Source: Eledone cirrhosa
Taxonomy: Eukaryota
Assembly: GCA_964016885.1 (NCBI GenBank)
Contig: OZ024740.1
Location: forward strand, 85,436,001-85,500,000
DNA: 64,000 bases
Direction: 5' to 3'
Below are positions 17,432 through 53,193 of this stretch, piece after piece. The notes under the pieces are model-generated. The model searched no databases, was not told the origin of the DNA, and saw nothing but the letters and a program-made list of their open reading frames with translations. The translations under genes were made by a program, and so were the position numbers. Positions within the stretch are counted from its first letter, which is position 1; each line of letters begins with the position of its first letter.

Positions 17432-17871
17432 ATGAAGAGAGAAGAAACATTTAGATATAATTAGTAATAAAATGTATCATACCTAAACTGCTCCTAAATT
17501 CCTCGACTACGTAGTTTCGTGGCATAAACAAAAACAATATATCATAAAGATATAGAGTCCTTGCGAGGTCTGCCGACTTATCAAGAGGATACCTCATTTT
17601 ACTAGTCTCAAGAACGCGTCTACACGACGTGAGAAAGAATCCCAAAAGGCGGAGGGGGAGATAGTCACGCGATATAACGGTCGAGAAACAGAGCTAAGCC
17701 TCTTATAACCCTGAAGAAAATACCACGGAGGCGGAGGGGGTATTTATATCGAGGCCGTAGAAGAGGTGGTGAAGAAGGCGAGAAGTATGAGTAATGGAAG
17801 CTTTCCGGCTGTCCCCACACTTCAAAGATTGCTCGACCAGAGGGAGTTATTAACAATATATTTAGAAACAC
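17432..17871 (-). mobile_element. PLE pseudo-LTR fragment inserted in (TA)n, containing a hammerhead
   Basis: Flanked by (TA)n on both sides; contains the hammerhead at 17500-17589. Confidence 0.6.
17500..17589 (-). ncRNA. Type I hammerhead ribozyme, U3:A8 variant
   Basis: Minus strand: tcctc TTGATAA gtcggca...tgccac GAAA ctacgtag TC gagga. Stem I is tcctc/gagga, stem III is the palindrome ACTACGTAGT, cleavage triplet GUC. Confidence 0.8.
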
Positions 17872-17900
17872 ATATATATATATATATATATATATATATA

Positions 17901-18061
17901 ACGAAGGAAATGTGGTAAGGAACCAGGTGGACCATAACGCACCAAAGTACTCAATACTTAGGGTAGTCGAGTGGGTAATAGGAACGAGTAGGACCAGACG
18001 GCTGAGCTCAAGCCGTCGAAACGGCTTGAGCTCAGCCGTCGGGGTCCTACTCGTTCCTATT
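17901..18061. mobile_element. Short (TA)n-embedded tail + hairpin insertion (family also at 51803-51929)
   Basis: A unique ~77-nt segment, then the near-perfect hairpin ATAGGAACGAGTAGGACC..GACGGCTGAGCTCAAGCCGT cgaa ACGGCTTGAGCTCAGCCGTC..GGTCCTACTCGTTCCTAT. Confidence 0.7.
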
Positions 18062-18248
18062 ATATATATATATATATATATATATATATATATATATATA
18101 TATATATATATATATATATATAGAGAGAGAGAGAGAGAGAGAGAGAGAAAATTGAGGTTGGTAATGGCACATGGAATATATAAGAGACAGAATACTTTTT
18201 TGTGAAAAAACATAATTTTATAAGGTAAGGAAATAATAAAGGGTATAA

Positions 18249-18296
18249 AAAATGACCGGTTTCGATGGGTCGGCAAAAGCCATCTTTTCAAATGTT
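18249..18296 (-). ncRNA. Type I hammerhead ribozyme, U3:A8 variant
   Basis: aacat TTGAAAA gatgg-loop-ccatc GAAA ccgg TC atttt. Palindromic stem III ACCGGT; weak stem I. Confidence 0.65.
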
Positions 18297-49387: not shown

Positions 49388-51005
49388 GTACCTAGCTAAA
49401 AGTAAACCCCTATACTTAGCTTTTGTCGACCTGGAGAAAGCCTTCGACAGAGTACCCCGTTCCATTATCTGGTGGGCTCTTAGAAAACTAGGTGTTGACG
49501 AATGGCTTGTGAGAACAAGCCATGTATAAAGAAACAGTCAGCAAGGTTAGAATTAACAACGAATATAGCGAAGAGTTTAGCGTAAAAGGTAGTGTCCATC
49601 AGGGCTCTGTTCTTAGCCCCCTACTATTTATTATTGCCCTTCAGGCTATAACAGAGGTGTTCAAGACCGGCTGCCCATGGGAACTCCTATACGCAGATGA
49701 TCTAACGCTCATAGCTGAATCAATGGCCGAGCTAGAGAAGAAATTCCAAACATGGAAGCACGGCCTAGAATCAAAAGGCCTTAAAATTAACCTGGCTAAG
49801 ACTAAAGTTCTAGTTTGTAGGAAAGAAAATAAGGCGCCGGTCCCTTCTGGGAAATGGTCATGCTCAGTGTGTAGGAAAGGCGTAGGTAGAAACTCTATTT
49901 TATGTCCCAAATGCAAAGTATGGGTGCATAAAAGATGTAGTGGGATCACAGGTAAGTTAACTAAGAACATAGATTTTACATGTGGCCGGTGCTCTGGTGC
50001 AATAAGTAGCAGCAAGTGCCCACCCACTAAATACTAGCTGTTTCAATTGCGCAGAGGGTTCTATAGAAATAGTGGACAGCTTCCGTTACTTGGACGACAA
50101 AATCAGCAGTGGGGGAGGGTGCTCTGAAAGTACAGTAGCTAGAGTCAGAACTGGTTGGAAAAAGTTCAGAGAGCTTATACCACTATTAGCCGCTAAAGGG
50201 TTCTCCCTAAGAATGAAAGGCAGGTTGTATGATGCCTGCATACGAACAACAATGTTGCATGGCAGTGAGACCTGGGCATTGTGTGCAGAGGATATACGCA
50301 GACTAGAGAGGAACGAAGCTTGCATGCCCCGCTGGATGTGTAATAGTAACATACGTGAACGGCAAAGCATATGCGAACTAAGGAAAAAATTAGAAATAAG
50401 AGGGATCAGATGTTGTTTACTCGAGAGAAGGCTACGTTGGTATGGTCACGTGATGCGCATGAAAGACGGCAGCTGTATAACAAAGTGCAGGGCAATAAAG
50501 ATAGACGAGCTGATAAATTCCGACCTCACACACTTACACCTCTCCAAGACAATGTCACTGGACCGAGACCTTTGGCGGTAGTCAGTAATAGAGTAGACCC
50601 GCCTTACCTAAATACAAAGTAAAACCTACTACAGTCAGTAGGCATCTCTAACAAAATACACCCCCGTCTCACGACCCCCACCCCATCCACACCGCCCCTT
50701 CAATGTAAAGTTATGTTGGTGCCACAACATCCAGGGCGAAACAAATGAAATCGTGTAGGTGTCACGACAAAAAAAACACACAGTCCACGCTGTAATGTGG
50801 CCGTGTAGGCAACACGGTAAAAACCTCCCAGCCCCACACTGTAAATGTGGTTGGTGTTAGGAAGGGCATCCAGCTGTAGAAAACCCGCCAGACAGTCCTA
50901 TGCGAGCAATGACAACCACTCTTGCCTCAAGTGGGAAAACTCACGTCCAAACCCATGCAAGCGTGGAACATGGACGTTAAACGATGATAATGATGATGAT
51001 GATGA
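49388..51005 (+). mobile_element. 5'-truncated RTE LINE (copy 3 of the main family)
   Basis: [23 protein letters not shown], ORFs 49522-50037 and 50072-50581; (GAT)n tail at 50984-51005. Confidence 0.92.
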
Positions 51006-51802
51006 TATATATATACATATATATACATATATATATACATATATATGCATATATATATATATACATATATATATAAATATATATATATATATACATATAT
51101 ATATATATACATATATGCATATATACATATATATACATATATGCATATATACATATATGCATACATATATATATATATACATATATGCATATATACATAT
51201 ATATACATATATGCATATATACATATATGCATATATATACATAAATGCATATATACATATATATATATATATACATGCATGCATATATACATATATGCAT
51301 ATATACATATATACATATATGCATATATACATATATGCATATATGCATATATACATATATTCATATATACATATATGCATATATATATATACATACATGC
51401 ATATATACATATATGCATATATACATATATGCGCATATATGCATATATAAATATATGCATATATATATATATATATATATATATATATATATATATATAT
51501 ATATATATATATATACATATATATATATATACATATATATATATGTATATATATATGTATATATATATATATGTATATATATATGTATATATATATATGT
51601 ATATATATATGTATATATATATATATGTATATATATATGTATATATATGTATATATATATATATATGTATATATATATACATATATGTATATACATATAT
51701 GTATATACATATATGTATATACATATATGTATATACATATATGTATATACATATATGTATATACATATATGTATATATATATATGTTTATATATATATGT
51801 AT

Positions 51803-51929
51803 ACCGAAGGAAATGTGGTAAGGAACCAGGTGGACCATAACGCACCAAAGTACTCAATACTTGAGGTAGTAGAGTGGGTAATAGGAACCAGTAAGACCCT
51901 CTCAGCTGTCGGGGTCTTACTGGTTCCTA
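51803..51929. mobile_element. Short tail + hairpin insertion in (TA)n, same family as 17901-18061
   Basis: Shared CGAAGGAAATGTGGTAAGGAACCAGGTGGACCATAACGCACCAAAG segment; arms ATAGGAACCAGTAAGACCC / GGGTCTTACTGGTTCCTAT. Confidence 0.7.
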
Positions 51930-52677
51930 TATATATGTATATATATATATGTATATATATATGTGTATATATATATGTGTATATATATGTGTATATATAT
52001 GTGTATATATATATGTGTATATATATATGTGTATATATATATGTGTATATATATATGTATATATATATATATATATATATATATTATATATATACATTAT
52101 ATATATTTATATATATATATATATATATACATTATATATATTTATATATATATATATATATACATTATATATATATATATATATATATATATATATATAT
52201 ATATATATATATATATATATATATATATATATGTATATATATATATGTATGTACATATATATATGTACATATATATATGTATGTACATATATATATGTAC
52301 ATATATATATATATATATGTACATATATATATGTACATATATATATATATATATGTACATATATGTATGTACATATATATATGTACATATATATATATAT
52401 ATATGTATATATATATGTATATATATATATATATGTATATATATATATATATATATATATACATATATATAAATGTATATATATATATGTATATATATAT
52501 ATGTATATATATATATATATATACATATATATAAATGTATATATATATATGTATATATATATATGTATATATATATATGTATATATGTATATATATATGT
52601 ATATATATGTATATATATATCTATATATATATATGTATTTATATATATGTATTTATATATATGTATATATATATATT

Positions 52678-53193
52678 TCGTTTCTGAATTCGTTTAGCAA
52701 GATTCTTTATCTGAAATCGTGTGTTGAAACCGATATTGTTATACTTTGGGAGGGTCATGTTGCCAATAAGAAACACACGCACCAGTTGCTTTCACTTCAA
52801 TTCAATTTATTAAATATTTATAAATTTACAAATTTATAAATTTCTGGTTGGTTGGTTGGTTCCACAACCAGATAGTTGTTTATATATATATAGTCATAGT
52901 TCTTTCGTCACACACTCTGTGACCTCTTCAGTGACTGGGGATTTCTTTCTTCGTTTCTGTGCCTTTCCTTTCTTCTATCCTACGCCAAAAATGAAGAGGT
53001 CACAGAGTGTGTGACGAAAGAACTATGACTATATATATATAAACAACTATCTGGTTGTGGAACCAACCAACCAACCAACCAGAAATTTATAAATTTGTAA
53101 ATTTATAAATATTTAATAAATTGAATTGAAGTGAAAGCAACTGGTGCGTGTGTTCCTTATTGGCAACATGACCCTCCCAAAGTATAACAATAT
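52678..53193 (-). mobile_element. PLE-type fold-back insertion with hammerhead
   Basis: Arms 52733-52930 / 52992-53193 and a ~55-nt tail; terminus related to the 25684 and 32251 insertions. Confidence 0.8.
52892..52936 (-). ncRNA. Minimal type I hammerhead ribozyme
   Basis: agtca CTGAAGA g gtcaca gagtg tgtgac GAAA gaac TA tgact. Confidence 0.82.

Follow-up and report, generated by a model that had tools for sequence, protein, structure and literature searches.

Nearly all families of the Hydra clade of Penelope-like elements (PLEs) carry hammerhead ribozymes and insert into (TA)n (Craig et al. 2021, PMC8557442), and one member from Octopus bimaculoides, Hydra-1_Obim, is listed in the supplement of that paper. 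PLE hammerheads have been described as having U3-A8 cores, a palindromic helix III, opposite-strand pairs and low activity in vitro (Cervera and de la Pena 2014, PMC4209133), and the published layout of PLE insertions sets an inverted pseudo-long terminal repeat (pseudo-LTR) beside a direct one, with an optional one-sided tail (Arkhipova 2013, PMC3846280). In vitro, the purified PAc protein of a Poseidon element favours AT-rich DNA and both cleaves and extends its two strands, synthesis beginning at two sites on either side of the tail; the RNA that it inserts is uncut, hammerhead cleavage being dispensable (Frangieh 2024, PMC11167929). Octopus vulgaris is reported to have 31 recently active PLE families and transposable-element hotspots, and the main text of that report does not treat hammerheads (PMC13282606). 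Here we examine a 64,000-nucleotide window of Eledone cirrhosa (GCA_964016885.1, contig OZ024740.1, positions 85,436,001 to 85,500,000, forward strand; coordinates below are those of the window), for which an original prediction, made from the sequence alone, had claimed a colony of PLE-like fold-back insertions with many hammerheads between 17432 and 53193.

Thirteen inserts in TA repeats

The predicted starts of 13 inserts, here labelled A (17432), B (17901), C (18148), D (25684), E (30669), F (31039), G (32251), H (33326), I (35133), J (42521), K (43063), L (51803) and M (52678), all agree with the sequence, with offsets of at most about 7 nt, and a TA-type repeat adjoins every insert on at least one side (the left flank of C being (GA)n followed by (TA)n, and that of D a short imperfect TA run). 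An inverted arm is present in 11 of the 13, being absent from A and E, and ten carry extra sequence at one outer end only, about 32-85 nt long and 177 nt in J; K has symmetrical ends and an internal tail. Very probably, these inserts are 5'-truncated copies, together with one nearly full copy, of several PLE families (Hydra for K and I, Neptune/Nematis for C, the remainder without clade), which landed successively in TA repeats nicked by the GIY-YIG endonuclease and brought their hammerheads along as passengers.

Protein sequence shows K, I and C to be Penelope-like in origin; such an origin is likely for A, E, J and M from their hammerheads, and likely also for F and for D and G, whose common end and tail recur in M (65 of 77 nt). 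B and L make up one family and D and G another, whereas E and K belong to sister families (99 matches, 18 mismatches, 23 gap columns). The predicted number of about ten families therefore stands as a count of families, but for B/L and H it is architecture that points to PLEs.

A near-complete Hydra-clade element

GIY-YIG coding sequence had been claimed for three inserts, and profile and homolog matches confirm it in K, I and C; overlooked was a whole reverse transcriptase (RT) inside the 5.9-kb insert K (43066..49003; inverted copy on the minus strand, remainder on the plus strand). K begins with an inverted copy of its 3' 1.35 kb (43066..44414, minus, hammerhead H17 at 43211), followed by a filler junction, an upstream pseudo-LTR with a tail of about 48 nt before the ATG (44434..45312, plus, H17 at 45118), the RT frame with RWR, DKT and YRDD (45313..47085, plus), a CxCx5C linker and GIY-YIG endonuclease that are frameshifted relative to the RT (47060..47539, plus), and the 3' untranslated region (UTR) or pseudo-LTR (47540..49003, plus, H17 at 48858), an order that matches the published PLE layout (PMC3846280). 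The RT frame comprises 598 codons (45289-47085, ATG at 45313) and the out-of-frame endonuclease 159.

Among 7996 scored candidates we found 350 homologs of K, the named ones coming from Argonauta (35-41%). The predicted RT structure is confident (pLDDT 90.4) and matches TERT in seven of the top ten rows, with DRT2 first, at TM-scores of only 0.3-0.46. The GIY-YIG part matches the C-terminus of the homologs (profile E 7e-41) and aligns with Pfam GIY-YIG-type relatives of C; Pfam itself returned no domain in the two frames of K or in two full homologs. An Asn-rich, low-confidence stretch of the K protein (46740-46850, residues 497-515) resembles the N-rich inserts that occur in rotifer PLEs (PMC3846280).

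The Hydra marks of K are RWR at 45, DKT at 128 and the CxCx5C linker, with neither GxKF/Y nor CCHH; DKT/S recurs in 92 of 93 long homologs. Of two motifs regarded as possible at the endonuclease end of Hydra elements, CxH is present in K and I, and CxxC in I and 91 of the 93. Features common to these inserts and the Hydra clade as described (PMC8557442) are the C-terminal GIY-YIG domain, RWK-type and DKT motifs, absence of GxKF/Y, CxCx5C and the possible CxH motif, as well as a sense hammerhead near the 3' end and insertion into (TA)n. In a quick tree of 35 rows, K groups with the DKT-type homologs, apart from C-type proteins (support 100). Hammerhead and protein, compared by eye only and unaligned, place K in a different family from the Hydra-1_Obim of that paper.

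Public sequencing data mapped on 45262-49006 (X1 being possibly from the source sample and X8 a reduced-representation set) show that the K family is far from single-copy: X1 yielded 4371 matching contigs and X8 38,325 matching reads over a wide identity range, with small shares in X4, X6 and X7 (in X4 and X6 short diverged pieces only). No RNA data set was among those listed as containing K. Near 47069, where the frameshift of K lies, X1 and X6 contigs and 134 of 206 X8 reads differ from K by one base, so that the frameshift is specific to this copy or lineage. The element to which K belongs is thus a multi-copy Penelope-like element of the Hydra clade, and K is a young copy of it with a frameshift. 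At 48915, 4,694 reads pass from the element into (TA)n, and 65 contigs and 1580 reads have loose ends before 48847 that carry E-type helix II sequence. Over the last 245 nt of K, the summed depth is 13-29x the median of the open reading frame (ORF). Truncated copies and sister families both contribute to this ratio, which is not a copy number; it suggests that hammerhead-bearing ends far outnumber ORFs. We did not use as support a joint of 49006 to 45269 seen in 98 reads, which K's own upstream repeat could produce. Two X1 contigs, one for each joint, fuse the first ORF codons (45350/45361) to the hammerhead region (48847/48883) and are possible internally deleted or re-primed derivatives.

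Coding remnants in inserts I and C

Insert I (35140..37351, plus) consists of an inverted copy (35140-36017) and a main copy from about 36018, with a Hydra-type endonuclease C-terminus (profile E 1.5e-10), a 1-kb 3' UTR and a tail of about 80 nt; judged by these features, it is a Hydra remnant. The main copy of insert C (18148..19944, minus) runs from 19563 to 18148 on the minus strand and contains an internal CA/TA microsatellite, and its inverted copy occupies 19564-19944 with a tail of about 36 nt. A C-terminal GIY-YIG remnant in two frames (19352..19580, minus) is 75% identical over 56 aa to a protein with a Pfam GIY-YIG domain, P0123. The five long homologs of C have DKG, RT, GxKF (four of five) and, at the C-terminus, a GIY-YIG domain, and the linker CX2-5CxxC occurs in all five and in P0123, the corresponding region having been truncated away in C. 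By the DKG, RT and linker of these homologs C is Neptune/Nematis-type, its 56 + 14 surviving residues being too few to tell the one from the other. While the endonuclease end of C matches the protein type of Neptune and Nematis PLEs, its hammerhead differs in having a U3-A8 core and a 2-bp helix I, the latter resembling the D. virilis PLE hammerhead (PMC4209133). Besides K, I and C, no insert matched either protein profile.

Hammerhead motifs

A descriptor that allowed a palindromic helix III and a U3-A8 core found nine loci in the window, eight within the predicted region and one at 59023, as against a mean of 0.9 and a maximum of 3 in 60 local dinucleotide shuffles searched in the same way; an earlier descriptor with an obligatory looped helix III, which gave no strict and two relaxed matches, was abandoned. 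An independent set of 78 metagenomic loci encoding relatives of K has a sense-strand hammerhead in 51, and a covariance model made from 37 hammerheads of these unrelated loci placed nine of the 11 claimed motifs in the first nine ranks of its 17 hits within the window (those of A, E, J and M, both of I and all three of K). The E-values of the nine range from 0.0005 to 2.3, with five below 0.1 (A 0.0014, E 0.0005), and it is their rank order, not single E-values, that carries the hammerhead evidence. Covariation in the metagenomic set is partly circular because the motifs were chosen for pairing; as a control of the model, 14 descriptor-negative loci were searched, and five gave hits below E 0.05.

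The original prediction of 11 complete type I hammerheads holds for eight motifs by descriptor and nine by model, but not for the C pair, nor fully for the middle copy of K, which has a mismatch in helix III. The two C motifs (H17 at 18254, minus, and 19803, plus) have a U3-A8 core, a 5-bp helix II and a palindromic helix III, are missed by both descriptor and model, and have a helix I of only 2 bp. Likewise, the predicted density of about one ribozyme per 3 kb is right as arithmetic (11 per 35.8 kb, or one per 3.25 kb), but the motifs come from only seven insertions.

Among the inserts other than K, I and C, A (17432..17870, minus) is a single fragment without an inverted arm and has a type I motif at 17497-17592 with a U3-A8 core, a long helix II, a palindromic helix III and a predicted cut after 17505; E (30669..30815, minus) is a 147-nt fragment with a canonical-core hammerhead (H17 at 30707). 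J (42521..42866, minus) has 62-nt arms and, in its 177-nt one-sided part, a U3-A8 hammerhead (H17 at 42639; 42611-42704), the helix I of which is extended and long and encloses it (z -7.6); the inverted arm ends 7 nt into this helix, and a 7-nt word stands at both ends of J. M (52678..53193, minus) has 197-nt arms, a tail of about 55 nt and a hammerhead in its main copy (H17 at 52897), its inverted copy beginning within the hammerhead core. The I motifs are at 35186 (minus) and 37220 (plus).

The near-perfect fold-back F (31039..31596, 260-nt arms, short tail) bears in each arm a hammerhead-shaped motif (31236, 31435) that was read by eye and is missed by descriptor and model; both have the core substitutions U4C and A6U, which suggests an inactive motif copied as such. 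Outside the predicted region, a canonical-core hammerhead motif with a long helix II and a palindromic helix III adjoins a TA run at 59016-59109 (minus). An opposite-strand hammerhead-like stretch in the D/G/M tails was rejected, its core being wrong and a fold signal lacking.

Helix III is palindromic in six of ten motif types examined, and most of these hammerheads, being of that kind, are predicted to act as dimers. In both E (30707) and K (48858), helix III is an 8-nt AU repeat, so that these hammerheads might conceivably dimerise across families or pair with any (AU)n RNA. The motifs thus agree with the PLE hammerheads described by Cervera and de la Pena (PMC4209133) in being type I with palindromic helix III, U3-A8 cores and opposite-strand pairs, and differ from them in the long helix II of A, I and K, the AU-repeat helix III of K and E and the extended helix I of J. 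Compared with the metagenomic loci, the distance from stop codon to cut site is longer (1319 nt in K and 1000 in I, versus 121-763 in 29 cases), and the helix II region of E, K and I, at 25-36 nt, is longer than the 10-25 nt seen in 50 motifs. Animal non-LTR retrozymes (10.64898/2026.07.22.740005) are likewise short non-coding hammerhead units related to PLE pseudo-LTRs, but the units of this window are single or head-to-head and form no tandem monomer arrays.

Proposed insertion mechanism and competing explanations

We infer from the work on PAc how these inserts may have formed. The element protein would nick AT-rich DNA on both strands, and an uncut RNA would be copied into cDNA from two start sites close together, of which one takes in the tail; the two cDNAs would mostly end early and join head to head, yielding inverted arms with a one-sided tail, and hammerheads would be copied along as passengers of the 3' ends. 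Each landing would split the TA run and leave target on either side, so that the array could go on accepting copies, LINEs (long interspersed nuclear elements) included. In keeping with this scheme, no insert has its end at one of the 11 motifs, the cut sites lying 38-219 nt away.

The closest competitor keeps the same elements and derives the inverted arm from fold-back self-priming of a single cDNA (or from an antisense template) instead of two primed cDNAs, as has been suggested for PLEs (PMC3846280); we regard it as possible, with a distinctly smaller chance of being right. The tight hairpin centres of B, D, F and L fit it, and I, J and M have the tail on the longer main copy, as self-priming requires. 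In C, however, the tail sits on the inverted copy, which reaches about 36 nt past the main copy and which fold-back copying of the main cDNA therefore cannot yield; the K junction contains filler with a short duplication, and PAc extends both strands in vitro (PMC11167929).

The small palindromic inserts could instead be MITE-like (miniature inverted-repeat transposable element-like) DNA transposons, or fold-back elements of another kind with a preference for TA, a reading that would concern B/L, H and perhaps F and D/G and that we consider unlikely. TA-targeting DNA transposons are known (PMC4486113), and B (17901..18060, arms of about 40 nt and some 77 one-sided nt), L (51803..51930, 19-nt arms), D (25684..25990, one-sided tail of about 58 nt) and G (32251..32520) show neither a hammerhead by descriptor or model nor a match to either protein profile. 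In B/L no ribozyme fold was detected, and H (33326..33704, 74-nt arms, tail of about 85 nt) has no intact hammerhead and no coding sequence by descriptor and both profiles. Symmetrical terminal inverted repeats are nevertheless absent from B/L, D/G, F and H, which have asymmetric ends with one-sided extensions of 32-85 nt; the members of the B/L and D/G pairs have a common outer end and tail but different inner turnaround points, and the D/G end and tail match those of the hammerhead-bearing M.

A retrozyme-like route, in which the copies would stem from hammerhead-processed circular RNA by rolling reverse transcription, is less probable still. A circular RNA origin has been suggested for PLEs (PMC4209133), and both pseudo-LTRs of K do carry hammerheads. 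A circle, however, predicts that the upstream and 3' repeats of K come from one template. Compared with the 3' end, the inverted arm has one mismatch in 1353 nt, whereas the upstream repeat, over 831 nt, has five substitutions and two indels, every one of which lies upstream of the cut site (excess divergence p 0.006; p 0.035 on the shared interval), and tandem monomer arrays were not found. Such an asymmetry speaks against a circular template in the case of this single insertion, with the caveat that gene conversion between the arms could mimic it. With the young 5.9-kb copy there is a simple way of testing, from genome sequence, whether the hammerheads of PLEs give rise to a circular template.

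Against successive landings of PLE copies, or our account of them, several observations have to be set. Four of the nine model E-values exceed 0.1, and none of 4227 Rfam families matched at the gathering score; by E-value, no hammerhead was among the best 150 of 489 Rfam rows, where hairpin and microRNA noise dominates. PAc comes from a Poseidon element, not a Hydra one; several tails (55-85 nt, and 177 nt in J) are longer than the published 30-40 nt, although the layout is otherwise that of PLEs (PMC3846280, PMC11167929); and target-site duplications are unreadable inside TA repeats. The late CxxC motif of K lacks its first cysteine, and the K unit (45265-49003), at 3.7 kb, exceeds the usual Hydra length of <3 kb, a descriptive and non-diagnostic trait that here follows from a 1.46-kb 3' UTR. 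B/L and H, finally, have neither coding nor hammerhead evidence.

By their sequence, these inserts appear to be new families of known PLE groups, of a kind of element already described, Octopus included. Among the matches listed in our literature search, which left Repbase and Dfam outside its scope, there was no description of these families and no octopus hammerhead census. Several families that look undescribed are thus added to two known PLE groups, and no new system or host function is revealed.

Predicted folding and RNA consequences

Forcing the hammerhead fold carries a penalty of 51-100 kcal/mol in C, F, I and M and of 2-6 kcal/mol in A, E and J. Sense hammerheads read outward, so that a read-through transcript meets the antisense arm first, and in folding models the hammerheads of fold-backs are predicted to be buried by their own antisense arm. 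The suggestion that any read-through transcript could be cut is therefore improbable for fold-backs, from which long RNA hairpins are predicted. That the cluster is a selected host device, its ribozymes and hairpins terminating or processing read-through transcripts, is scarcely credible: low folding costs in A, E and J and long, perfect predicted hairpins would suit it, but the copies are young, lie on both strands among LINEs, include two with damaged motifs and have their fold-back hammerheads occluded; nor was any host gene identified within the block.

A broader proposal, which we put forward as speculative and rather doubtful, is that the genome holds tens of thousands of hammerhead-bearing Penelope ends of many families in self-growing TA arrays, that landing as a fold-back silences the ribozymes while seeding long perfect RNA hairpins (candidate substrates for editing or small RNAs), and that the long copy reveals Hydra copying from linear, uncut RNA and not from a ribozyme-made circle.

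The compound TA block and its surroundings

Nine of the PLE-type inserts (10.5 kb) stand with four LINE pieces (7.0 kb) and TA-type repeat (6.8 kb) in one compound array of 24.3 kb (30622..54915), whose components are parted only by TA-type repeat, every gap showing at least 97% purine-pyrimidine alternation; A, B and C form a second small stack, and D is solitary. An apparent microsatellite can thus be a 24-kb stack of retroelements, which is relevant to repeat annotation. The LINE pieces are a 3' fragment of an AP-endonuclease LINE with an (ATC)n end at the TA array (34076..35016, minus), a truncated copy of the same group with RT and PHD finger (37533..40196, minus), a second LINE fragment (RVT_1) with TA repeat on both sides (40465..42236, plus) and a truncated RT + PHD copy (49389..51005, plus). 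With a further copy at 26530-30340, the AP-endonuclease LINE is present four times in the window, and since all four of its (ATC)n ends adjoin TA, it also appears to favour TA.

The proposed hotspot is upheld in so far as TA targeting, or a TA sink, is evident in a block common to PLE-type inserts and four LINEs, but within the window the descriptor does not find significantly more motifs per TA base in the predicted region (8 per 5140) than outside that region (1 per 1418, p 0.69); when insertions per base are counted, p is 0.11.

Between 30826 and 33325, the imperfect TA sequence around F recurs around G, with 428 matches on the right and 130 on the left and no mismatches on either side, while other arrays in that comparison have 3-41 mismatches; F and G lie about 30 nt apart in the homologous sites. 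This site repeat may reflect an unequal crossover of two alleles or the tandem assembly of two haplotypes.

No tRNA was found in the window. Elsewhere in it, a 33-bp minisatellite of 46 copies and, after it, 6.6 kb of AC-rich, degenerate repeat take up 3991-12390, and a repeat of 170-190 nt resembling a short interspersed nuclear element occurs at 3144-3332, 20382-20555, 22502-22685, 26036-26399, 56333-56444 and 61618-61792.

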